Shown here: positions 3,278 through 34,591 of the stretch, in pieces
How positions within the stretch are numbered: position 1 is the stretch's first letter
How the letters are laid out: the number at the start of each line of letters is the position of its first letter
NCBI GenBank assembly: GCA_964422025.1
Contig: CAYQYZ010000006.1
Location: 4,157 to 68,156 of the forward strand
Length of the DNA: 64,000 nucleotides
Source of the DNA: an uncultured Gammaproteobacteria bacterium
GTDB lineage: Bacteria > Patescibacteriota > Microgenomatia > UBA1406 > HO2-37-13b
Reading direction: 5' to 3'
Translations under genes and position numbers: made by a program
Notes under the pieces: generated by a model
What the model was told of the DNA's origin: nothing
The model's database searches: none
Seen by the model: the letters and a program-made list of their open reading frames with translations, nothing else

Positions 3278-4690
3278 TTATTGAACGATTTCTATAGCGC
3301 TTGCTTGGGTAATATTTCTATCTAATATAACCTTGTCATTTTGAGCAAGTCCTACTACATGAACCATAGAACCAAACACAGTACCAACGGTAACTTTTTT
3401 TGCAACTGCTTTTCCATCTTTTACTACGTACACAAAACTCTCACTCGATGTTTGATGCACGGCATCGATGGGAATATACGTTTGAGCATTTTTTAGTGTG
3501 TCTCCGTCGAGTACAAGATTAACCATTACGTGATCACGATCAGTAACTTTCGAAATAAAGGAATCGGGAAGATTGAAATAAACACCATACAATCCGGCTT
3601 CTAGCGAATCGTTAGAAACAAAATGTGGTTTAACAGTAATTTTTTCACCATGCACTACTAATTCAGCAGGAGTTTCAATAGTAATTTTTGCAGCAATATC
3701 ACGACTTACATATGCAATTACAGTTATTGGATCGTCTTTTGTCTGAGAAACAATAGCAAGAGGCGTGCCAGGACTAACTGCTTGACCAACTTTCACAAAT
3801 ATTCGCTGCACTACTCCATTAAATGGGGAAGCAGGCGCTGTTGCTCCTTCAGCAATACGAGCAAGACTTAACTGCAATCGACTCACTTCTTTTTGGACAT
3901 CGAGCATTTTTTCTTGTAAGTTTAATTGAGCAATTGCTGTATCACGTTGTAATTGCGCAATATGTGCAGGCTCTTTGTCGCTTGATGACTGATATTCATT
4001 TACTCGTAATCCTGTTTTTGCTTGATTCTGAGCTGCAAGAAACTGGCTTTTTGCCTGTTTAGAAGCTAAAATTAGCGATGCATTTGCAACAGGATCGGCT
4101 TGCAATAATGTCATATTTGAATCGAGTGAAGAAATAATTGAATCATTTAATGCAATTAAATCTTTTGTCGCATCGGTAGATTGATTCGTAATATCGCGTA
4201 CCTGAGCCGATTGTGATTCAGCTTTTTGCGCAATCTCTTTCTGTTTGGCGATTATATCTTTCTGACTGTCATAGGTATCAAGAGCAGATTGATATTGCAC
4301 TGCAGCAAGTTGTCGCTGAGTACTTTGTGCATTGCCTCCAGTATAGTTAGAAGAAATATTCATGAGCACTGCCCACTTATTCACTGGCATTCCTTCATGA
4401 GTGTAAATATTTTGTACCACACCACCGGTTAATGAAACTATTTTCACAACACCCGACTTTTCAACTTCACCTATTACCGAAATTCTTGGAGAATCGCCAA
4501 TACTATATACTGATACTTTCTGTGGTGCTTTTGTATCACTATTCTTAACCACAGCTGGTTTTCGTATGATATTGCCAAAAATAATCAATAAAACAACTGC
4601 TGCTAAGGATAAGTAAAATGCTGGCACAGGGCGCTTTGCAATATTTTTCTTCAATTTTTGCAAATATTTCTTACTATTTTTTTGTTTCAT
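3278..4690 (-). CDS. Efflux RND transporter periplasmic adaptor subunit (HlyD/MFP family)
   Basis: ORF 3278..4741. The likely start is M18 (MKQKNSKK..), followed by a TM helix, a long Q/A-rich coiled-coil and a barrel-sandwich motif (SPFNGVVQRIFVKVGQAVSPGTPLAIV). It sits 9 nt upstream of the RND gene. Confidence 0.8.
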   Translation of the reverse strand: MKQKNSKKYLQKLKKNIAKRPVPAFYLSLAAVVLLIIFGNIIRKPAVVKNSDTKAPQKVSVYSIGDSPRISVIGEVEKSGVVKIVSLTGGVVQNIYTHEGMPVNKWAVLMNISSNYTGGNAQSTQRQLAAVQYQSALDTYDSQKDIIAKQKEIAQKAESQSAQVRDITNQSTDATKDLIALNDSIISSLDSNMTLLQADPVANASLILASKQAKSQFLAAQNQAKTGLRVNEYQSSSDKEPAHIAQLQRDTAIAQLNLQEKMLDVQKEVSRLQLSLARIAEGATAPASPFNGVVQRIFVKVGQAVSPGTPLAIVSQTKDDPITVIAYVSRDIAAKITIETPAELVVHGEKITVKPHFVSNDSLEAGLYGVYFNLPDSFISKVTDRDHVMVNLVLDGDTLKNAQTYIPIDAVHQTSSESFVYVVKDGKAVAKKVTVGTVFGSMVHVVGLAQNDKVILDRNITQASAIEIVQ

Positions 4691-6327: not shown

Positions 6328-8785
6328 CGATCATGTAGTACCCACAGGGCTTATCTAGGGCCGCTACGGTGCGATTCACCGTGTCTACAACCGAACTAGG
6401 TAATATCTTCCACATTTTCCCGTCCGATGACACGGCAAGTGCAAATCGAGAAGGATTGTATTTCTTTTTCGGCTGACCAACAGGGATAAGGTTTTCCTTC
6501 GTATATGAAAGTGCAACAATCGATGATTTTTTATGGAGACTTGGAATAATCTTAGCCGCCTCTTTGTCTGATCCAATCGGTGGATACGCTTTGTAACAAA
6601 TATATTGCACATTCCCAACCTGCCACCGTGTTCCTCCCGATGACCTGACGCCTAACAAAGATCCACCGGCAAGAATGGCATTCGTACCTTTTTTACCGAG
6701 TACGGTCGTTGGATAAAATGAAACAGGGGAAACAATTTTTGCCGATAAAAATGCATCAAAGGTAAGTGTATCAGCTTGCGCAACGGTGAAAACACGTTGA
6801 TCTCCGGTATTAGAATCTCCGGTACTACCAAATACGCCTCCGCCACTGGGAACAATCTGAGCTCGTGTTCCACTCGATGTTGAACTTGAACCGGTGCCGT
6901 TGGAAAAGGTTTTAGCATAAAAGCGCGATTGTGCGGTATAGACTGAATTCGAATCTAAAGCTCGTACGTACATAGTATGTGTTCCTTGAGTTACGACTCC
7001 ACTATTACAAGTAAACGCTTCGGTAGTGCTATTAAAAGATCCATCGGTGGCCGTACAGTTGCTCCAGCCACTCGTGGGACTATTTGAATCAAGACGATAT
7101 TGTACGCCTGAAATATTTGTTATTGAATTTGTTGAAGTAACCGTACCTCTTATTTGTAAAGAATCCGTTCCTTGTGAGGTTGTTACATCAGTAAGTGAAT
7201 GGGGGAAATTATAAAAAAGCCATACAGAACCAGAATTATTACGTGAGTTGTAATCAGAATCTTGTGAAGACACGACCATATCATATACTCCATCACCATT
7301 AAAGTCTCCTGAAGTATATTTGTATGGCATAAAATCACCCGCAATCGCACCGTCAAGTCGATATATATAATTTGAGCTTGACGACATTGATAGGGAATTA
7401 CCTGTACTAGACAAATATCCATCAAGAACAGCGCCTGAAACTACATATTGCGATCCTGAATCAGTGCGCGAGTTATTTGCTGCTGAAGAAGCCCATACAA
7501 TTAAATCATTGTATCCATCATTTGTAAAATCTTTCAAACCCAAAACTCCAGGAAAGTCACCTGTTGCGCCTAAAACCTTAACGGCATAATTCGTGCTTGT
7601 TGCCAAATCAAGATTATTTCCTGTCGTTCCAGCGTACGATGCGAGTTTTGCATTTGCTATAACATACGATGGGCCTGTGGTTGCATATTCATGAAGAAAT
7701 AAATTATCTCTTCCCGATTGATCAAACTTTCCAGCAGCATCGAATGTTAAATATGCTTCGGCAACAGATCCGTCTATTCGAACATTGTAATTTGTTGACG
7801 TTGAGATATTGACCACATTTCCTGTGCCTACATTATCATCAATAAGAGTATTGTAAACAATCCACACTGAGCCTGATGATGATCTCGAATTAGGACTTGT
7901 ATACTCCGCTCCCAAAACAAAGTCCTGCTTATTATCATTATCAAAGTCGCCGAAAACCAAACCATTTGACACTAAGCCTAAGTAAATACCCGTAGTGCCC
8001 CCATCCCAACGAACATTAAAGCTAGTTGTAGTAGCCAATTCAATGGTATTACCTGTCGAAGTATAATCATCTAAAATTGAATCTTTAATCAAATAAATTG
8101 ACCCTTCTGCACTATTCCTGTTATATGCAGTTACAAATAAATCGTGTTTTGAATTTTGATCGATATCTGCAAAACCCATAAACGTTCCTAAATAATCGCT
8201 TGCTGCTGCCCCGTCAATACGCAAATTGTATTTTGAAGACGAATTCAAATCGATCGTATTACCCGTTCCTGAAAGGCCAGAAAAAATTGAACTATACAAT
8301 ATATATATCGAACCTGAGTCCGATCGAGAATTGAAATCGGTCTGATCTCCTGAAATTGCCAAATCCATCGATCCATCGTTATTAATATCGCGAACTTTCA
8401 CTCCAGAAATACCACCGTTAGCTGCAGGACCATCGATTCGAATATTGTACGACGAGCTCGAATTTAAATCGATCATGTTTCCCGACGTAAGATAATTATT
8501 AAGGAGCGAATCGTACAAAATATATACTGATCCAGATGCATTTCGAGAATTATTATCTGTTCCTGCCGCAGTAATTAAAAGATCGTCTTTCCCATTTCCA
8601 TTTACATCTGCCGCTTCCATTGAATAACGACTTAATCGATCTGTTGTTGCCGCGCCATCAATTCTCAAATTCCAATTTGTGGTAGAGTTAAGATCGTATG
8701 AAACAGCCAAAACAGATTTTGGGACAAGTAAAATTGCAAAAAACGTTATGAAATATATCAACCGTGTATACATGAGTAATAACAC
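6317..8785 (-). CDS. Secreted FG-GAP (integrin-alpha-like beta-propeller) repeat protein with a conserved C-terminal module
   Basis: Signal peptide. About 8 repeats of the pattern NxRIDG..D.LG...D(V/I)NGDG..DL.I.A....NSR..SGS.YI.YDS....TGN..DL. The C-terminal SGWSNCTATDGSFNS..GTHTMYVRA and GKMWKILPSSV modules are shared with the neighbour. Confidence 0.8.
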   Translation of the reverse strand: MLLLMYTRLIYFITFFAILLVPKSVLAVSYDLNSTTNWNLRIDGAATTDRLSRYSMEAADVNGNGKDDLLITAAGTDNNSRNASGSVYILYDSLLNNYLTSGNMIDLNSSSSYNIRIDGPAANGGISGVKVRDINNDGSMDLAISGDQTDFNSRSDSGSIYILYSSIFSGLSGTGNTIDLNSSSKYNLRIDGAAASDYLGTFMGFADIDQNSKHDLFVTAYNRNSAEGSIYLIKDSILDDYTSTGNTIELATTTSFNVRWDGGTTGIYLGLVSNGLVFGDFDNDNKQDFVLGAEYTSPNSRSSSGSVWIVYNTLIDDNVGTGNVVNISTSTNYNVRIDGSVAEAYLTFDAAGKFDQSGRDNLFLHEYATTGPSYVIANAKLASYAGTTGNNLDLATSTNYAVKVLGATGDFPGVLGLKDFTNDGYNDLIVWASSAANNSRTDSGSQYVVSGAVLDGYLSSTGNSLSMSSSSNYIYRLDGAIAGDFMPYKYTSGDFNGDGVYDMVVSSQDSDYNSRNNSGSVWLFYNFPHSLTDVTTSQGTDSLQIRGTVTSTNSITNISGVQYRLDSNSPTSGWSNCTATDGSFNSTTEAFTCNSGVVTQGTHTMYVRALDSNSVYTAQSRFYAKTFSNGTGSSSTSSGTRAQIVPSGGGVFGSTGDSNTGDQRVFTVAQADTLTFDAFLSAKIVSPVSFYPTTVLGKKGTNAILAGGSLLGVRSSGGTRWQVGNVQYICYKAYPPIGSDKEAAKIIPSLHKKSSIVALSYTKENLIPVGQPKKKYNPSRFALAVSSDGKMWKILPSSVVDTVNRTVAALDKPCGYYMIVGR

Positions 8786-25943: not shown

Positions 25944-26885
25944 TCATTTGTTTCCTGAATGAAATTTCTTGTGAACTTCGCGCAACCCAAAGTTTGTTAC
26001 GTGAGTGTAAATCTGAGTAGTAGCGATATTTTTATGCCCTAACATTTCTTGTACCGAGCGGATATCAGCGCCGTGTTGAAGTAAATCAGTAGCAAACGAA
26101 TGTCGCAATACATGGGGCCCTATGCGAAAGAGAATTCCCGCTAATAGTCGATACTTATCTACCAGTCGCTCAATCGAACGTGGGGTCAGACGCGATTTTT
26201 CATCGGTTAGCTCGTCACTGGCTTTAGGGCCACTGTATCGAATAAACAAGGGCTTATACGGATCATCGCGAGCTTCCATATACTGTCGCAACCTGTCAGT
26301 AGCACTGTCTGAAAGAAAAACAACTCGTGCGTGACCTCCTTTTCCAACTACGCCAAATTCACCTTCTGTTAAATTCACCATATCTCGATCAAGTCCAGCA
26401 AGCTCCGACACGCGTAAACCTGTTGAAAACAATACTTCAAGAATTGCTCTGTCGCGCAGTCCCATGGTGGTACTTACATCGGGAGCACTCAGTAATTTTC
26501 CCACTTGTTCATCGGACAAGAATTTAACGGTGCGGTCACCCATTTTTCCCAGTTCAATTTGCTCAGGGGAAAGGACCTTATGATTTTTCTTAATTAAGAA
26601 TCGGAAAAAAGACCGCAAAGCAACTAAAAAATAATTTTGTGTTTGGCGCTTCAGTTCACCTTTAAATGGGTTAAAGTATTCACGCGACAGGTACAGGCGA
26701 AATTTCCGAATCGTCTCTTCATCAATATCAGTGACATTCCATTCTTGACCATCCTTATGCATCCAATCTTGAAAGAAGCGGAGGTAATAGGAATACATCC
26801 GAACCGTTTTTTGAGAAAGATTTTTATCCAGTTCGCAATATTCCAAGAATCGATCAATTCCTTCTTTGAGCTGCATATATTTCAT
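25944..26885 (-). CDS. Tyrosine recombinase (XerC/XerD-like integrase family)
   Basis: C-terminal RHSFATDLLQHGADIRSVQEMLGHKNIATTQIYTHV (R..H-x2-R..Y) and an N-terminal SAM-like domain. The likely start is MKYMQLKEG (ATG 26885 or 26876). Confidence 0.85.
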   Translation of the reverse strand: MKYMQLKEGIDRFLEYCELDKNLSQKTVRMYSYYLRFFQDWMHKDGQEWNVTDIDEETIRKFRLYLSREYFNPFKGELKRQTQNYFLVALRSFFRFLIKKNHKVLSPEQIELGKMGDRTVKFLSDEQVGKLLSAPDVSTTMGLRDRAILEVLFSTGLRVSELAGLDRDMVNLTEGEFGVVGKGGHARVVFLSDSATDRLRQYMEARDDPYKPLFIRYSGPKASDELTDEKSRLTPRSIERLVDKYRLLAGILFRIGPHVLRHSFATDLLQHGADIRSVQEMLGHKNIATTQIYTHVTNFGLREVHKKFHSGNK

Positions 26886-26942
26886 ATTAAACGACGTGAC
26901 AAAAATAGTCAACACTTTGACAATGAGTGGTATAATGGAGGC

Positions 26943-27323
26943 ATGAAGAGGGGCGACGTGAAAAGAAATCTTTTTACCGAATTTCGGGGAACTAGTTTGT
27001 TGCAAAATTTATTAACCGCAGAAGATATATATCGGTCATTCGATCGTGGACTTGTAACTACAGACGAAGCAAGTCGACTTATTGATGAACAAGTTTTAAA
27101 TGGCGTAAGTACTCAAGATAGAATTTTGCTTGATGGTGACCCAAACGATTTTGAAAGTAACGGAACAAATGACCCCACGTTGTTGCGAATTCTCCGAAAA
27201 GAATTGACTGAAGGAATTAGTTTACGAGAGCAGGTAAGAAATTCGGCTGATGAATTCCAATTTTCACGTCTGAGTTTTGACAAAAACAACGGCAGCAGTT
27301 CTAGAAACGGAAAAGAGAGATAG
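26943..27323 (+). CDS. Hypothetical protein (126 aa)
   Basis: This is the 3' part of track ORF 26637..27323. The ATG at 26943 is preceded by TGgTATAAT (26931-26936). The upstream part of the track ORF is antisense to the recombinase. Confidence 0.45.
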   Translation: MKRGDVKRNLFTEFRGTSLLQNLLTAEDIYRSFDRGLVTTDEASRLIDEQVLNGVSTQDRILLDGDPNDFESNGTNDPTLLRILRKELTEGISLREQVRNSADEFQFSRLSFDKNNGSSSRNGKER

Positions 27324-27330
27324 GTGAATA

Positions 27331-27415
27331 GGAGAGGTCGCATAGCGGCCGAGTGCGCACGCTTGGAAAGCGTGTAAGGGTCAAACCTTCGAGGGTTCGA
27401 ATCCCTCCCTCTCCG
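27331..27415 (+). tRNA. tRNA-Ser (anticodon GGA)
   Basis: Acceptor ggagagg/cctctcc, discriminator G, anticodon stem cacgc/gcgtg with loop ttGGAaa, long variable arm, T arm gaggg-ttcgaat-ccctc. Confidence 0.85.
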
Positions 27416-27446
27416 CCCGACAGACCCACGCAATAAATACGCACAA

Positions 27447-27534
27447 GGAGAGGTCGCATAGTGGTCTAGTGCAGCGGTTTACTAAACCGCCGTATCGCAA
27501 GATACCGCGAGTTCAAATCTCGCCCTCTCCGCCA
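27447..27534 (+). tRNA. tRNA-Ser-like type II tRNA with anticodon ACU (unusual), CCA encoded
   Basis: Acceptor ggagagg/cctctcc and discriminator G are identical to the neighbouring tRNA-Ser. Anticodon stem gcggt/accgc with loop ttACTaa, variable arm gtatc-gcaa-gatac, T arm gcgag-ttcaaat-ctcgc. Confidence 0.7.
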
Positions 27535-27580
27535 CCTGTTTTAGCTTCCAAACTAACCCATAGTATGGTATACTTGTACA

Positions 27581-29707
27581 ATGTCGTCTTTAGAAAAGCC
27601 AGGTCCACAAAAACATATTGAACCCGGATATTCAGCCATGTCGCCCGATGGGCGTACGCATACTGAGGTTTGGCATGCAGGTAAACCCGAAGCAAAAAGA
27701 ATCGTTGATACCCATGCATTTTTGGAAGATCCGAAACATCCTGATACCGTGAAGTGGCTTGCCCAGCAAAATGATTCAATGCAAGAATTTCTTGCGCAAG
27801 TAGATCCTGAAACATTGCTACGTATTCAGGAAAGCGTTGATAGGGCACATAACTACGAAGAAGCACCATGCCCAAACCCAAACGGTATGTATACCTACCA
27901 AACTCGGCAAAAACCAGGCCAAGTACAACCCGTACACTATTACTATTCAAAAGGCGATGATATAAATGGCGAAGGACACGTACTACTCGATCCAAATGAA
28001 GTGGATCCCGAAGGAAAGGTGTCGTTTAACTGGTATTACCCTGAAAAGGAAGGTAGATATGTTGCTTATGTACAAACCGATGCACGCACGAAAACACATA
28101 ATCTACGCGTACGCGATATCGCTACCGGCATAGATCTTGAAGAAAACATTCCTAACACCTCTCATACTTATGTTTCATGGCTACCCGATGCCTCTGGTTT
28201 TTATTATATGCGCTACCCCGATAGCGAAGGCATTGATACAAAAGATCCCCGTTACGTCCGTGGTACTTATTTCCATACATTAGGTACTTCAACCGAAGAA
28301 GATAAACTGGTTTATTCTACGGGTAATGTACAGGCAGGAAGCGCTTACGTATTTATACACCCAGACGGTGAGTACAAAGTCGCCGGAATACTGAGTCAAT
28401 ATGGAACAAAGCAAATGCTCATTTCACATTTTAATTACGAGACATCAACAGAAAATTTTACTGAAGTCTACAACCAACCAGACACAGATATTCAATATGT
28501 TGGTATAAACAACGGATATTTTTATGCAATTAAATCTGAACCTACCCGAAAAGCAGTATTAATACGTTTGAAACTTACCGATGGCCTTCATGAAGGAATG
28601 AACGATGAGTGGGAAGAACTCGCCGCAGCTGAGAATGACTTTATTGATAGCGCACAATTTATTGGTGATAAGCTCGTAATTAATTACTTATATAATGCTA
28701 CGTCTCGAATTTTCGTTGCTGATCCAAAAACTGGGCATACTTATGATCTTCAAATTCCTCCTATGACTACCGCAACTATAAAAGGCTCAGAAGACAGCAA
28801 TATTGCATATATGTCGGTTGAATCATTCATAACACCTCCGCAGTTATTTAAGGTGAACATTAGCACAGGCACAATTGAACCAATTCAAGAAAAACACGTT
28901 CCTTTTAATGAGGGCGATTTTACCACTGAGCAAGTAACCTATAAATCTGAAGATGATACCGATGTAGATATGTTTTTAGTCCAAAATAATACTGCTCGTG
29001 CAAACGGTGAAAAAAGATTAGTTATGAGCGTTTACGGTGGATTTAGACATAAAAGAACCCCCAAGTACGACCCGTTATTAGCCGCTGCTCTTGACCAGGG
29101 ATATATTCTTGCTGTACCTAACATTCGCGGTGGGGGAGAAAAAGGCACTCCATGGCACACGGCTGGCAGAGGACCAAATAAAGCGAATACCTTTAAAGAC
29201 GTATATGCAGCACGAGATTACTTAATTAATAATGGCATTACAACAAAATTGCAACTTGCACTAATTGGAAGAAGTGCCGGAGGACATGTAGCCAGCGTAG
29301 CCCTAACACAACGACCAGAACTTTGGGCTGCTGTTGTTGCCCATGCTCCTATAACCGATGCGGTGCATTTTAATTTAAGCGGGAAAGGTGGACCGTGGGT
29401 AGATGAATTTGGAGATCCAAACAAGCCTAAAGAATTTGCCTATTTACACAGTACATCTCCAATTCACAATGTGCACAACAATGTTTCTTACCCTCCTGCA
29501 TTATTTGTAACCGGAGATATAGATACAACAGTTGTACCACCTAATTCCTATAAATTAGTCGCTGAATTGCAAAAAGCCTCCGGAGCACAAAACAAAACCA
29601 TGCTTTATGTATATCCTGGTGGACACCGAGAGGGAATTCCAAAACCGGTAGAAAAAGCAACCGATACAACTAAATTAGTTTGGCTCAACGCACAATTAGA
29701 ATTGTAA
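27581..29707 (+). CDS. Prolyl oligopeptidase family serine peptidase (S9A)
   Basis: 708 aa with an N-terminal beta-propeller region. The C-terminal catalytic domain has GRSAGG (nucleophile elbow), GDIDTTV (Asp) and GGHREG (His). Confidence 0.85.
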   Translation: MSSLEKPGPQKHIEPGYSAMSPDGRTHTEVWHAGKPEAKRIVDTHAFLEDPKHPDTVKWLAQQNDSMQEFLAQVDPETLLRIQESVDRAHNYEEAPCPNPNGMYTYQTRQKPGQVQPVHYYYSKGDDINGEGHVLLDPNEVDPEGKVSFNWYYPEKEGRYVAYVQTDARTKTHNLRVRDIATGIDLEENIPNTSHTYVSWLPDASGFYYMRYPDSEGIDTKDPRYVRGTYFHTLGTSTEEDKLVYSTGNVQAGSAYVFIHPDGEYKVAGILSQYGTKQMLISHFNYETSTENFTEVYNQPDTDIQYVGINNGYFYAIKSEPTRKAVLIRLKLTDGLHEGMNDEWEELAAAENDFIDSAQFIGDKLVINYLYNATSRIFVADPKTGHTYDLQIPPMTTATIKGSEDSNIAYMSVESFITPPQLFKVNISTGTIEPIQEKHVPFNEGDFTTEQVTYKSEDDTDVDMFLVQNNTARANGEKRLVMSVYGGFRHKRTPKYDPLLAAALDQGYILAVPNIRGGGEKGTPWHTAGRGPNKANTFKDVYAARDYLINNGITTKLQLALIGRSAGGHVASVALTQRPELWAAVVAHAPITDAVHFNLSGKGGPWVDEFGDPNKPKEFAYLHSTSPIHNVHNNVSYPPALFVTGDIDTTVVPPNSYKLVAELQKASGAQNKTMLYVYPGGHREGIPKPVEKATDTTKLVWLNAQLEL

Positions 29708-29749
29708 TTGAAAGACAACCAGAGCATCCTATTCTGTTAAAATGTATTA

Positions 29750-30166
29750 ATGGACACAATGCCAATCACAATCCTTGCCACAATAAACGCTCCATTAACC
29801 AAAGTGTGGGATTATTGGAACAATCCCGAACACGTTATGAAATGGGCGTTTGCGAGTGACGATTGGGAAGCTCCGGCTGCTTCAAATGACTTACGAGTCG
29901 GTGGGAAATTTTCTACTACAATGGCTGCAAAGGATAAAAGCGCTAGTTTTGAATTTGAAGGAGTATATTCTGTTGTAGATCCTCAATCTCGCATTGAATA
30001 TGATATGTCCGACGGTCGCCATGTGACTATCATCTTTGAACAAGTAGGGGAGAGCGTGCACGTAACACAAACGTTTGATCCTGAAACCCAAAATTCCCGG
30101 GAATTGCAACAACAAGGCTGGCAATCAATTCTGGATAACTTCAAAAAATACGTGGAAAGTAATTAA
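29750..30166 (+). CDS. SRPBCC superfamily protein (AHSA1/Aha1-like)
   Basis: 138 aa. INAPLTKVWDYWNNPEHVMKW...FEFEGVYSVVDPQSRIEY...GWQSILDNFKKYVE is typical of activator-of-Hsp90-ATPase-homolog-like SRPBCC proteins. Confidence 0.7.
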   Translation: MDTMPITILATINAPLTKVWDYWNNPEHVMKWAFASDDWEAPAASNDLRVGGKFSTTMAAKDKSASFEFEGVYSVVDPQSRIEYDMSDGRHVTIIFEQVGESVHVTQTFDPETQNSRELQQQGWQSILDNFKKYVESN

Positions 30167-30169
30167 GCT

Positions 30170-30251
30170 TCGCAATGGCCTAGTGCAGCGATTTACTAAA
30201 CCGCCGTCCGCCTCAAGCGGACCGCAAGCTCAAATCTCGCCATCTCCACCA
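30170..30251 (+). pseudogene. 5'-truncated, diverged copy of the tRNA-Ser(ACU) gene (lacks the 5' acceptor strand)
   Basis: Aligns to positions 8-76 plus CCA of 27447..27534 at about 80% identity by eye. It keeps the tttACTaaaccgcc anticodon arm and has a compensated variable arm (gtccgc/gcggac). A-C mismatches occur in the anticodon and T stems. The expected 5' strand ggagatg is replaced by ttaagct. Confidence 0.65.
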
Positions 30252-30329: not shown

Positions 30330-31062
30330 ATGCCTATTTTTGCCAATTTTAATCAGTATTTTTACTTTATTGGCGCCTCAATAATGTTGCCTGTTTGGAT
30401 AATCTTATTTTCAAATAAAGCGTACCGCAGACGCATGATAATTGTTGGCATCATTATTGGAATAGGGGCAACCATTATTGAACACACATATGCATTAGCA
30501 GATTATTGGAGACCTATTTACCTTTTTCCTCATTTTCCTTTCGAAGATTTTTATTATGGATTTGTTTTTGGAGGGATTTCTACTGCGTTTAGTGAATTTT
30601 TATTTAATAAAAGAGATTCTAAAAAAAGAACATACCCTGCTTATCAAAAATTGATTATTTTATTTACTCTACTTACAACATTATGCTTCTTGTATTTTGT
30701 TCATTTTTTACAGTTAAATTCAATTGTTGCTCATATTACCCCCCCCCATTTTACTTGGCCTAACAGTATTAATAATAAGAAAGGACCTTTTCTTTTACGC
30801 CTGCAGCAATGGTATTCTAACTGCAGGACTAACTTTAATCATGTTCTTGATCTTGAAATCATTATATCCGCAAATTTTTCAAAATCACTGGTACCTAGAA
30901 AATCTTTCTCAACATTTTATTTTGACAATACCAATTGAAGAAATTCTCTTTGGATTTGCCATGGGATTTGGTCTTGGATGCGCATATGAATTGATTAACG
31001 GATACTCGGAAATTACCAACATACAATTAAAGAAAAAAAGAATGAGAAGATTTAAGAAATAA
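30330..31062 (+). pseudogene. Lycopene cyclase domain-containing membrane protein, split by a frameshift at a C9 homopolymer (30740-30748)
   Basis: ORFs 30330..30938 and 30724..31062 overlap in different frames. The sensible sequence switches frame at the C run (..LNSIVAHI / PPPILLGLTVLIIRKDLFFYACSNG..). The two halves carry FPFEDFYYGF and IPIEEILFGF (PxE(E/D)xxF repeats). Confidence 0.6.
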
Positions 31063-31956: not shown

Positions 31957-33405
31957 ATGCTATACTTGAAACTTATGAAACTGGACGATGCAAAAAAAAT
32001 TGTTTTTGAAAAAAAGCCGGCATTTGCAACTCTGTATAACGAGTGGGGGAATACAACGTGGACGGAATATGCGGATAAAAATTATCCAAAAAAGGCTGTT
32101 ACCGAGCTCCCAGAAGAGTTTTTAGAGGCTTTCAGGAACGTACTAAACTCGTCGCTGGACGAATCTACGGTTACTACAGCTCTCGCCACTCTCCAAAAAA
32201 CCAACTTTGTAAGCACCGCCGATCATCATGGAATTTTGTGCCATCCTTTTTTTTCAAATAATACGATTCTGCGATCGAGTAGGGAAGACGCGGTTATTTC
32301 ACTTACCTGTGGAGGAATTTCATTAACCAATTCTTCATATCCTCGAGGAATTTTTTTCCATGATAAAAATTTGAATGAAATTCGTATGCCATTTGTTTCT
32401 CGAAAAACGGGAAATTTGCCCGTGTACGGACACGAACCGATTACAAAAAAGCAGTTGCAGAGCCACAAAAAAATGGCTCGATTTATGGACATATCAAAAC
32501 AAGCTCGCAAAAATTTGATGATTTTTTTTGATGCTCTTGTAACGGATGAAAAAATGTGGGAACTTGCTTCTCTCAGCGATCAATTCACTCGAATAAATAG
32601 TATTCTATGGCACCAGCTTTTTGGAGAAGGTAAAAATCTTATTTATGTTAGTTGTGAGGATGTGGTGAGGGAGCTACTATTGAAAATCCATTTAGTAAAA
32701 AAGACGCCGATGCACGATTTACTCTTCGACCCAAGCGTACGAGAGCGGTACATTGAGAATTTTAATGGAATAACCGGTGCCCATTCCGGGCAGGAGTACG
32801 GAACGCATTTTTTTTGGCATATTAAACATGAACATCACACGAGGGTCCCGTTATGGATACACGGAGATGAGCTCGTTTCGCCGGATAATCATGTTAAAAT
32901 CAGCTTTGATACAGGCTCTATTACCCAAGGCTTAAACCATAGAACACTCCTTCCAAGTACCGCGCTTTGTTATAGCATTCTTTCGTTTTACTATGGTCTC
33001 ACGCTCGGTGGGGGATTCTCGCAAATTCAGTACTTGGGAGAGATGAAAGAAGCATATGAAAAAACAGTACATCATCCTGAAAAGGAGTCGGATCATTCTG
33101 AGCCCTTCGATTACTCTCAGGGTAAACTCCGCGAAGGATCTCAGTCAGAGATACAAACAAACATCTTCACCGGCGAATGCGTTCAATTAGGGCTCACTGA
33201 TGGCAAAAAAACAGTACCCGCCACACTCTTTGATATACTGTTATGGAACAGGGGGGACATCACGCAACTCTATGAGAGCTTTAAGACTGCTCCTCTGCAA
33301 GCATCCCTCGACCTTATGATGCCCGAATACGTGCAAATAGTAACCGGAAAAAGACCAGTTATTTCCGATTTACCCGAAATTCCAAAAACGCTGTATGTCG
33401 ACTAA
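31957..33405 (+). CDS. Hypothetical protein (482 aa), translationally coupled to the downstream ATP-grasp gene
   Basis: Long ORF with no recognisable family. It contains an in-frame repeat-element insertion and overlaps the next gene by 11 nt. Confidence 0.6.
   Translation: MLYLKLMKLDDAKKIVFEKKPAFATLYNEWGNTTWTEYADKNYPKKAVTELPEEFLEAFRNVLNSSLDESTVTTALATLQKTNFVSTADHHGILCHPFFSNNTILRSSREDAVISLTCGGISLTNSSYPRGIFFHDKNLNEIRMPFVSRKTGNLPVYGHEPITKKQLQSHKKMARFMDISKQARKNLMIFFDALVTDEKMWELASLSDQFTRINSILWHQLFGEGKNLIYVSCEDVVRELLLKIHLVKKTPMHDLLFDPSVRERYIENFNGITGAHSGQEYGTHFFWHIKHEHHTRVPLWIHGDELVSPDNHVKISFDTGSITQGLNHRTLLPSTALCYSILSFYYGLTLGGGFSQIQYLGEMKEAYEKTVHHPEKESDHSEPFDYSQGKLREGSQSEIQTNIFTGECVQLGLTDGKKTVPATLFDILLWNRGDITQLYESFKTAPLQASLDLMMPEYVQIVTGKRPVISDLPEIPKTLYVD
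33091..33146 (+). repeat. Long variant of the hairpin repeat element, in frame in CDS 31957..33405
   Basis: gatcattctgagcccttcgattactctcagggtaaactccgcgaaggatctcagtc, translated as SDHSEPFDYSQGKLREGSQS. The ends match the short element, and the centre carries a 27-nt insert. Confidence 0.65.
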
Positions 33406-34591
33406 CAGTTGTCCTTATTGTGGAAACAATCCGGTAAACCACCGAGCTATGAAGTTGGCGGAAAGTATAGATCTGCTATTGACTCCCATGCTTTTGGGTA
33501 TGAACAGATTCCATCACCCGATTATAGATAAAGTTATTTTTACGACCATTAAACTCTCGGTTTTCCCTCTAAAATACTTGGGAGTGTGGAGTTTTCACGA
33601 GGATATTTCCAAGGCTCGTTCGGATCGTTCAAAAGTTATTTGGAACGAGGCACAAAAAAGGGGAATCCGCATGCAGGGAATTTCAGTATGGGGCAAACCA
33701 ATCGAGCAATATCGAGCCCACGTAGAAGGAAAGTGGCGCTATTTTGAAAGTCTCCCGATACCTCCTCATTACAATCAGCATACTTTTACATGGATCGACG
33801 ACAAAGCAAAACTTCGTGCATATTTACAAAAAAACAACATCTCCGTGGCGCACGGAGGATATGCAAAAACATTTAAAGAGGCAGTGCAAATCTTTAAGAC
33901 CGGGACTCCACCATTTATTGTAAAACCCCGCACCGGATCCCGCGGCCGGCATACTACAACCTATATATATACTGAAAAGGAGCTTAAGGAGGCTTTCACG
34001 ATTGCCAAACAACTTTGTTATTCCGTAATTGTCGAAGAACACTTGCAGGGAAGTGTGTATCGGGGAACATACGTAAATGGGGAAGTCGTAGGAGTGTTGC
34101 GGGGGGATGTGGCCCATATTGTAGGAGACGGAAAGAGCTCAGTAAAGGAGCTTATTTCCAAAAAAAACTCCTCTAAACACGCCCAGGTCTCAAATGTTAC
34201 CATCACTCCAAAACTCAAAGATTTTCTTGCCCGTCAAAAACTCTCACTCTCAACTGTACTAAAGAGAGGACAGAAAGTGGCGCTTTCCGAAAAAATCGGC
34301 GTTGAATACGGCGGATTTCGAGCAGAAATGCTACCTCAAACGCATCCTAAAATTCTTAAATACCTAAAAAAAGCAGGGGACAGTATCGGTTGCATAGTAG
34401 TTGGCTTTGACTTTATAATCAATGATGTAACAGCTGATCCGGATACCCAAAAATGGGGGATTATCGAAGCAAATTCGCTCCCATTTATCGATTTGCACCA
34501 TACGCCCCTTGCAGGTGCATCTATTAATGTAGCAGCAAAAATTTGGAATTTATGGACACTTCCACAACACGTCCGCCCGAAGGCGGATTAA
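33395..34591 (+). CDS. ATP-grasp domain protein (cyanophycin-synthetase-N/RimK-like ligase) with an N-terminal CxxC
   Basis: FIVKPRTGSRGRHTTTYIYTEKELKEAF...VIVEEHLQGSVYRGTYVNGEVVGVL...GIIEANSLP is typical ATP-grasp core. CPYCGN lies at the N-terminus. Confidence 0.65.
   Translation: MSTNSCPYCGNNPVNHRAMKLAESIDLLLTPMLLGMNRFHHPIIDKVIFTTIKLSVFPLKYLGVWSFHEDISKARSDRSKVIWNEAQKRGIRMQGISVWGKPIEQYRAHVEGKWRYFESLPIPPHYNQHTFTWIDDKAKLRAYLQKNNISVAHGGYAKTFKEAVQIFKTGTPPFIVKPRTGSRGRHTTTYIYTEKELKEAFTIAKQLCYSVIVEEHLQGSVYRGTYVNGEVVGVLRGDVAHIVGDGKSSVKELISKKNSSKHAQVSNVTITPKLKDFLARQKLSLSTVLKRGQKVALSEKIGVEYGGFRAEMLPQTHPKILKYLKKAGDSIGCIVVGFDFIINDVTADPDTQKWGIIEANSLPFIDLHHTPLAGASINVAAKIWNLWTLPQHVRPKAD

Follow-up and report, generated by a model that had tools for sequence, protein, structure and literature searches.

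The 64-kb window analyzed here (the whole stretch of 64,000 nucleotides taken from contig CAYQYZ010000006.1) carries five tRNAs as called by ARAGORN, including a tRNA-Ser(act) on the forward strand at positions 27447 to 27534. Its anticodon, ACU (A34 C35 U36; positions 27481 to 27483), lies outside the usual serine set (NGA or GCU) and is complementary to the serine codon AGU. An earlier interpretation made from the letters of the window (the sequence-only reading) had obtained this anticodon from a hand fold, and covariance alignment returned the same anticodon stem (GCGGU/ACCGC) and loop (UUACUAA), in agreement with ARAGORN. The Rfam model RF00005 covered positions 27447 to 27531 end to end with 54.9 bits (gathering score, 29), compared with 54.6 bits for the neighboring tRNA-Ser(GGA). 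The two adjacent genes have the same acceptor stem (GGAGAGG/CCUCUCC) and discriminator base (G73), as had also been noticed, and the long variable arm described at that stage forms a 5-bp stem (GUAUC/GAUAC) with a GCAA loop, as befits a class II tRNA. The remaining geometry is likewise that of a class II tRNA-Ser, with a 7-bp acceptor stem, a 5-bp anticodon stem, a 7-nt anticodon loop, and a 5-bp T stem. U8, A14, G18 G19, and T54-Psi55-C56 are conserved as in bacterial class II tRNA-Ser, the serine identity pairs G1:C72, G2:C71, A3:U70, and C11:G24 accompany G73, and the 3′ CCA is gene encoded. The minimum-energy fold of the transcript is the cloverleaf (−37.2 kcal/mol; z = −5.1 versus shuffled sequences). 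Identity as a tRNA-Sec or an allo-tRNA was excluded by the 7/5 geometry with a D stem of 3 to 4 bp, as opposed to 8/5, 9/4, or 9/3 geometry with a long D stem. A scan for promoters and terminators gave site numbers no higher than those of shuffled controls. None of the marks of a tRNA pseudogene, such as broken stems, loss of conserved bases, or a subthreshold score, was present; the locus is a real, intact, canonical long-arm tRNA-Ser gene with an ACU anticodon.

The gene has many relatives. GTDB was scanned, with one genome per species, for general tRNA-Ser features combined with a YUACUAA loop (A34 fixed), which matched at least 119 loci, each taken as a block of up to 8 kb around the match (L numbers below). 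ARAGORN called 117 tRNA-Ser(act) in 116 of these 119 loci, and 37 further tRNA-Ser(ACU) genes were found in JGI metagenome loci among the matches listed. The family thus counts more than 150 distinct genes, as a lower bound, in genomes and metagenomes of Patescibacteria, the ultra-small bacteria of the Candidate Phyla Radiation (CPR), so that this survey of relatives for the same A34 bears out the earlier argument against a sequencing error. Patescibacterial lineages appear in the titles of 63 of the 119 listed loci and comprise Levy-, Gottesman-, Woese-, Roizman-, Collier-, Ames-, Pace-, Magasanik-, Taylor-, and Nomurabacteria, Saccharibacteria, and others. Another 43 loci stem from third-party annotation (TPA) co-assemblies titled "uncultured Gammaproteobacteria/Pseudomonadales" (e.g., L002, L003, L007, L010, L013, L015, and L017). 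Their GC content is CPR-like (0.41 versus 0.40), and several hold tRNA-Arg(GCG) together with an Arg(GCG)-Ser(CGA)-Arg(CCG) cluster of the CPR type. The ACU tRNAs of these loci, some of them on single contigs of ∼1 Mb, are on average 90% identical to the CPR-labeled ones; these titles thus appear to be wrong. A few ACU genes in metagenome-assembled genomes named Acidiferrales, Sulfotelmatobacter, and Weeksellaceae are probably binning contaminants, and L064 and L089 have deviating anticodon stems that resemble the sporadic cases known from the literature. The window gene combines G30:C40, U31:A39, and the UUACUAA loop on a tRNA-Ser body, as the family does, and its two closest relatives among the matches listed, in L009 (Levybacteria) and L105, are each 96.5% identical to it. 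tRNA-Ser(ACU) is neither an error nor a one-off but a large conserved CPR family. Several CPR loci also encode tRNA-Ile(UAU), usually called rare in bacteria (L105, positions 4347 to 4423; L104, positions 1465 to 1539).

Conservation within the family was assessed on an alignment of 110 distinct tRNA-Ser(ACU) sequences from several CPR classes. Cloverleaf pairing held in 99.8% of 2,742 cells, 18 of the 25 pairs had changed on both sides, and all five pairs of the variable arm covaried. None of 500 shuffles matched the observed pairing and covariation, and pairing fell to 37 to 57% when the partner columns were slid. The identity pairs G1:C72, G2:C71, A3:U70, and C11:G24, whose 5′ bases the search pattern had preset, occurred in 109 to 110 of the 110 sequences. 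At positions that the pattern had left free, G30:C40 was invariant and U31:A39 was present in 107 of 110. Such pairing across the family, together with the Rfam score and the cloverleaf fold of the window gene, ruled out the pseudogene alternative that the sequence-only reading had entertained. With the anticodon masked, 115 of 117 ACU genes had another ACU gene as their nearest neighbor at a different locus; similarly, among 271 AGY tRNAs, ACU genes were nearest to ACU genes in 147 of 148. Mean identity was 0.73 within the ACU group, 0.61 between ACU and GCU genes, and 0.60 among GCU genes. Since their nearest neighbors are other ACU genes, the ACU genes are not recent G34A mutants of co-resident GCU genes. 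They are instead an orthologous, slowly evolving family, and from these sequence patterns we propose that tRNA-Ser(ACU) is kept under purifying selection across Patescibacteria.

Position 34 was left free in a scan of JGI metagenomes for the Microgenomates-type backbone, which returned at least 120 matches, 82 with G34 and 38 with A34. Among those listed, A34 was confined to low-GC, CPR-like loci (0.32 to 0.47), and most G34 matches came from high-GC loci (mean, 0.57). No second GCU gene was found near the high-GC G34 backbone in any of 75 listed loci, so the G34 backbone is evidently the ordinary tRNA-Ser(GCU) there. Over its 5′ 45 nt, the window gene differs from the high-GC metagenome tRNA-Ser(GCU) of L127 in two places only, position 34 and one base of the D loop. 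tRNA-Ser(ACU) therewith appears to derive from the body of the standard tRNA-Ser(GCU), with G34 replaced by A. The sequence-only reading had taken the window gene for the expected AGY tRNA-Ser, normally GCU. The homologous backbone upholds the relationship, but a role as stand-in for GCU does not fit, because a separate tRNA-Ser(GCU) with another backbone lies in the same block of up to 8 kb in 53 of the 116 genome loci and 17 of the 37 metagenome loci listed (about 45%). Loci with both genes are often arranged as UGA-ACU-GCU clusters; the GCU gene is 67 nt from the ACU gene in L105, and both occur in the Levybacteria-labeled loci L008, L022, L057, and L104. In related loci, tRNA-Ser(ACU) apparently does not replace GCU.

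An orthogonal tRNA with the ACU anticodon has been assayed in Escherichia coli, where it read AGU (9.4%) and AGG (0.36%), with AGC and AGA below detection, and where A34 was not converted to inosine (PMC11066159). By this measure, the claim that the window gene decodes AGY codons would hold for AGU and not for AGC. Comparison of AGU with AGC usage, as the sequence-only reading had outlined, gave 236 AGU and 154 AGC codons in the open reading frames (ORFs) of the window, AGC making up 39% of AGY. AGA and AGG were counted 105 and 36 times. Because an AGU-only reader leaves those 154 AGC codons uncovered, a partner is needed for AGC. AGA is well used (11.6 per 1,000 codons in ACU-bearing loci), so a reader with inosine at position 34 (I34), i.e., with an ICU anticodon, would collide with it, which is the danger that had been raised at first. 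That worry is probably moot. CPR bacteria are reported to lack tRNA-Arg(ACG) and to use GCG instead (PMC8629427), and the ACU-bearing loci listed held 19 tRNA-Arg(GCG) and no tRNA-Arg(ACG). Such use of tRNA-Arg(GCG) argues for the absence of wobble inosine, and CPR bacteria appear to lack the TadA/inosine system. The loop of I34 substrates, U33-A34-C35-G36, is not matched by UUACUAA, which has U36. No deaminase motif of the form (H/C)AE...PCxxC was found in the window or the 119 loci, which amount to ∼0.9 Mb scattered over many genomes and give the search little power. Among the amino acids of NNY split boxes, serine alone has a synthetase that pays no attention to the anticodon, and for this reason ACU, and no other split-box ANN anticodon, would be tolerated.

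We consider it likely that tRNA-Ser(ACU) is a functional elongator tRNA, an extra, AGU-dedicated serine isoacceptor with unmodified A34 that acts alongside GCU. It would have arisen by a G34-to-A change in a tRNA-Ser(GCU) backbone, followed by purifying selection across Patescibacteria, in a lineage apparently without the TadA/inosine system that could make a split-box A34 hazardous. Seryl-tRNA synthetase (SerRS) would charge it by recognizing the long variable arm together with the acceptor stem and G73, and the unmodified A34 would pair in Watson-Crick fashion with U3 of the codon, reading AGU and essentially nothing else. AGC would then be served by the separate tRNA-Ser(GCU), and AGA and AGG by tRNA-Arg. 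Codon usage gives a hint of co-adaptation to ACU, in that AGU/(AGU+AGC) is 0.64 in ACU-bearing loci versus 0.47 in equally AT-rich loci with the G34 homologue (Fisher p = 5e-9), a contrast drawn from 16 comparison loci of unknown taxonomy and accompanied by shifts of UGY and GGY in the same direction, if less strong. This qualification counts against an AGU-dedicated isoacceptor, as do several other points. The AGU share in the window, 0.61, does not exceed that of other U-ending codons (about 0.66 to 0.72), so AGU is not favored. No tRNA-Ser(GCU) was found by ARAGORN or Rfam in the 64-kb window, and ACU could accordingly be the sole AGY tRNA of this organism; we infer that a GCU gene lies elsewhere in the source genome and that the two coexist here too. 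Serine charging, the unmodified A34, and AGU-only decoding are all three reached by inference, and the apparent lack of a TadA/inosine system is read from tRNA-Arg genes and one paper. All collection scans give lower bounds, and the first of them (GTDB) fixed A34, so the counts are minimum numbers of genes and not frequencies within CPR.

tRNA-Ser(ACU) also occurs on contigs of the viral collection IMG/VR. Scanning IMG/VR with the ACU anticodon arm as the pattern matched at least 120 loci, at least 109 of which carry a bona fide tRNA-Ser(act); three that were checked scored 53 to 54 Rfam bits. These genes have the anticodon, the lower anticodon arm (GUUUACUAAAC), and the class II serine features of the CPR genes, but they differ in their acceptor stems, reside in multi-tRNA arrays, and almost never occur with GCU, which was also present in 1 of the at least 109 viral ACU loci listed. 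The arrays are dominated by decoders of A/U-ending codons, with Asn-GUU, Thr-UGU, Gln-UUG, Arg-UCU, Lys-UUU, Glu-UUC, and Ile-UAU as partners, and the wobble base is U in 324 of 612 array tRNAs among the matches listed. Proteins encoded on the contigs L242 and L253 match phage families (phrog_1221, E = 4e-64), and an L253 protein is closest to one of a 595-kb uncultured phage. Given the dissimilar acceptor stems and a mean best identity to CPR genes of 0.80, the viral ACU genes are a parallel, independent set and not the source of the window gene. A viral origin of the latter was rejected on the same differences in acceptor stems and on identities of at most 0.86, a single contig of apparent CPR origin excepted. 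A second viral scan, which left position 34 open and set 29:41 to G:C (GGUUUNCUAAACC), gave 57 GCU versus 1 ACU among the tRNA-Ser matches listed, so ACU is a minority in that collection. Anticodon-arm BLAST of 50,697 records of cultured phages, insensitive as short-query BLAST is, confirmed no ACU; the FelixO1-like and Bastille-like matches were a UCU-loop tRNA-like sequence and a tRNA-Ser(UGA). The former, from Salmonella phage FelixO1 (L361, positions 2487 to 2570; record positions 25949 to 26032), is unannotated, has a long variable arm and a CUUCUAA loop (anticodon UCU), and lies in the tRNA region of the phage, where ARAGORN made no call for it.

Some viral loci have further peculiarities. 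L262 (IMG/VR; GC, 0.30) encodes a full transfer-messenger RNA (positions 7144 to 7532; Rfam, 116 bits), both ribonucleotide reductase subunits, and a BspA-type leucine-rich-repeat protein, in addition to tRNA-Ser(ACU). It may come from a large phage or be cellular DNA filed in the wrong place, so some of the "viral" ACU genes may belong to cells. tRNA-Ile(UAU) is found in about 20 of the listed viral arrays (e.g., L244, L248, and L253), and tRNA-Thr(AGU) and tRNA-Gly(ACC) occasionally.

The surroundings of the window gene are summarized in Table 1. tRNA-Ser(GGA) and tRNA-Ser(ACU) are probably co-transcribed, and the GGA-then-ACU arrangement is repeated in the related locus L099. Downstream, a 2.7-kb islet (positions 27535 to 30251) is bounded by the intact tRNA-Ser(ACU) and a truncated copy that, as the sequence-only reading had stated, retains ACT. 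This copy has lost the 5′ acceptor strand, carries C54 and an A in place of G73, and has mismatches in the anticodon and T stems; neither ARAGORN nor Rfam called a tRNA in it, and its fold is not a cloverleaf. With these features of a tRNA pseudogene, it is a pseudogene or an attachment (att)-like relic. As both copies carry ACT, A34 predates the insertion or duplication event. The islet genes had no homologue among the 119 related loci listed, and a public Logan unitig (SRR12762304; 2.7 kb) runs exactly from repeat to repeat, ending in both. Repetition of the 3′ part of a tRNA at the far end of a segment missing in relatives is typical of tRNA-targeted islands, but the sole recombinase lies upstream, outside the repeat-bounded segment. 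The arrangement has the look of an insertion targeted to the tRNA, or of a duplication, that happened long ago. The recombinase itself is a candidate housekeeping Xer or integrative-element remnant. Beyond the islet, a pair of genes recurs beside Ser(ACU)/Ser(GCU) tRNAs in three distant loci. A functional link between this pair and tRNA-Ser(ACU) was rejected, one of the two being cyanophycin-synthetase-like and the synteny extending to just 3 of the 119 loci listed. Between the relic copy and this pair, the overlapping forward-strand ORFs 30330 to 30938 and 30724 to 31062 lie in different frames, and only the second matches Lycopene_cyc (E = 3e-12); they may represent a frameshifted or split lycopene-cyclase-domain gene.

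Table 1. Features at and around the tRNA-Ser(ACU) gene (window positions unless a related locus is named)
Feature	Position	Strand	Basis and remarks
XerC/D-type tyrosine recombinase	25944..27005	-	Pfam Phage_integrase, E = 1.7e-40; directly upstream of the two tRNA genes and not part of the islet
tRNA-Ser(GGA)	27331..27417	+	29 nt upstream of tRNA-Ser(ACU); same acceptor stem and discriminator
tRNA-Ser(ACU), class II	27447..27534	+	Acceptor GGAGAGG, G73, encoded CCA; ARAGORN, Rfam RF00005, cloverleaf fold, family membership
Anticodon ACT (A34 C35 U36) in loop UUACUAA	27481..27483	+	ARAGORN and covariance alignment
S9 prolyl oligopeptidase (islet cargo)	27581..29707	+	Pfam
AHSA1/SRPBCC protein (islet cargo)	29750..30166	+	Pfam
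Decayed, 5′-truncated tRNA-Ser(ACU) copy, ACT at 30195-30197	about 30170..30251	+	Alignment; no ARAGORN or Rfam call; no cloverleaf
Gene without detectable relative in Pfam or PDB	31957..33405	+	First of the recurring gene pair
ATP-grasp enzyme like the cyanophycin synthetase G domain	33395..34591	+	PDB 7wac, E = 3e-26; no Pfam match
Recurrences of the gene pair	L069 2986-5365; L084 2831-5270; L111 3528-5904	n.a.	Synteny

Replacement of GCU by ACU in this organism, with AGU and AGC both read by a tRNA capable of A:C wobble, is unlikely. It would account for the lack of tRNA-Ser(GCU) in the window and draws on the homology of the backbone to GCU genes of the ordinary kind in other phyla; moreover, Mycoplasma tRNA-Thr(AGU), with unmodified A34, reads C-ending codons in vitro, as far as this work is cited in PMC11066159. 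About half of the related blocks show no GCU, but they span only up to 8 kb, and GCU adjoins ACU in one of the two closest relatives listed (L105) as well as accompanying it in the four Levybacteria-labeled loci named above. The failure of ACU to read AGC detectably in E. coli also sits badly with the share of AGC among AGY codons here. Still less likely is that a TadA-like enzyme converts A34 to inosine, so that ICU reads AGU and AGC at the risk of AGA. An AGA frequency as high as that of the window and of the ACU-bearing loci would mean serine misinserted for arginine, and ICU would be redundant with a co-resident GCU. The well-studied lineage-fixed bacterial A34 tRNAs that co-occur with TadA (Arg-ACG and Leu-AAG) do all carry I34, the U33-A34-C35 part of the loop is common to tRNA-Arg(ACG), and a 2026 preprint describes A-to-I conversion on a split-box tRNA(ANN) produced in E. 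coli, the documented case being Phe-tRNA(AAA) (10.64898/2026.05.15.725136). Against this stand U instead of G at position 36, the unedited ACU in E. coli, and the use of GCG in CPR bacteria, which are without tRNA-Arg(ACG).

Ranking below both is the idea that ACU is a nuclease-resistant spare, which escapes an anticodon nuclease, be it a toxin or a phage-defense tRNase, directed against tRNA-Ser(GCU) and is for that reason carried by cells and phages alike. Phage tRNAs have been proposed to evade anticodon nucleases by changes in the anticodon loop (PMC10264068), and ACU is both frequent in viral tRNA arrays and coexistent with GCU in cells. However, an AGU-only reader would be unable to rescue AGC codons, the viral arrays with their many U wobble bases resemble codon-supply sets, and no tRNase specific for tRNA-Ser(GCU) was seen near these genes. 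To our knowledge, no such tRNase has been described. It is very improbable that the gene serves mainly outside translation, be it by donating serine to an enzyme that depends on tRNA or by offering mobile DNA a place to attach. The relic-flanked islet directly 3′ of the tRNA, the tyrosine recombinase upstream, and the gene pair recurring by Ser(ACU)/Ser(GCU) in L069, L084, and L111 would be in line with such a role, but in its T arm, tertiary nucleotides, and acceptor stem the tRNA matches an ordinary elongator tRNA-Ser, the genes are placed in Ser-tRNA clusters and viral decoder arrays, and service as an att site would put no constraint on the anticodon arm. Nor does the ATP-grasp neighbor help, as cyanophycin synthetase, which it resembles, uses no tRNA, and the synteny is restricted to the three loci. 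The least credible explanation, to which we give next to no weight, is a functionless duplicate, a G34A mutant copy that is tolerated or decaying. Even though G-to-A changes are the expected mutations in AT-rich genomes and a decayed copy lies 2.7 kb away, that copy illustrates what real decay looks like, in contrast to the near-perfect pairing and abundant compensatory changes in 110 sequences of several CPR classes and to the greater closeness of ACU genes among themselves than of GCU genes.

The AGU-dedicated isoacceptor that we favor resembles the standard bacterial tRNA-Ser(GCU) of the E. coli serV type in class II structure, G73, G1:C72/G2:C71/A3:U70, C11:G24, U36-A37-A38, and the AGY box. 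Unlike it, the window gene has A34 in place of G34 and would be expected to read AGU only, not AGU and AGC, and in CPR bacteria ACU is a second gene beside a GCU gene of different backbone. Mycoplasma tRNA-Thr(AGU), along with the tRNA-Arg(ACG) of yeast mitochondria, likewise has an unmodified A34 that is genomically fixed in a lineage of reduced genome, with no inosine at that tRNA (as cited in PMC11066159). Those tRNAs, however, belong to four-fold boxes, in which misreading is harmless, and replace a G34 or U34 tRNA, whereas tRNA-Ser(ACU) serves the split Ser/Arg box and coexists with G34. An encoded A34 is likewise found in the TadA substrates tRNA-Arg(ACG) and Firmicutes tRNA-Leu(AAG)/Thr(AGU), which carry I34; U33-A34-C35 is as in tRNA-Arg(ACG). 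tRNA-Ser(ACU) departs from them in having U36 and not G36, in belonging to a lineage without tRNA-Arg(ACG), in being unedited by E. coli TadA as far as the ACU anticodon goes, and in serving a split box, where inosine would be hazardous. Engineered ACU and other ANN tRNAs in E. coli, which are translationally active (PMC11066159; 10.64898/2026.05.15.725136), have the same anticodon and provide the only direct decoding data for ACU, but they are artificial, whereas the CPR anticodon is natural and conserved.

In the literature, we found no description of a tRNA-Ser(ACU) family in CPR bacteria or phages. The sequences are public and the genes presumably annotated in the deposited records, and their conservation and meaning seem to be undescribed. 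A 2021 review has A34 "universally missing" in the Ser/Arg box and phage tRNAs lacking the same anticodons (PMC8007984), although a tRNA-Ser(ACU) of chlorovirus ATCV-1 is tabulated in PMC4810235. The 2026 preprint, covering 4,047 bacterial genomes of GtRNAdb, reports split-box ANN genes as sporadic and always accompanied by a GNN gene, calls the scarcity of A-starting anticodons a deep mystery, and does not report the CPR family (10.64898/2026.05.15.725136). On balance we lean toward the wider proposition that Patescibacteria, which make up much of bacterial diversity, and many uncultivated viruses systematically break the supposedly universal ban on A34 in split boxes, keeping next to GCU a dedicated tRNA-Ser(ACU) that has unmodified A34 and reads AGU alone. 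Two circumstances would allow it: SerRS ignores the anticodon, and ACU is no TadA substrate, with CPR bacteria in any case apparently lacking an I34 system.

To the standing puzzle of why wobble A is so rare, the more than 150 CPR genes and at least 109 on viral contigs add a natural counterexample. The ACU family is in line with placing the hazard in aminoacyl-tRNA synthetase identity and in inosine formation or superwobble, and not in A34 itself, and AGU-specific decoding is predicted from it. Annotation should not mark genes like this one as mistakes or as pseudogenes, and a naturally optimized ACU anticodon arm is on offer for genetic-code engineering. If the interpretation is true, tRNA-Ser(ACU) would be the first conserved natural split-box ANN tRNA, and the CPR family a ready natural system in which to ask why ANN anticodons are otherwise avoided.

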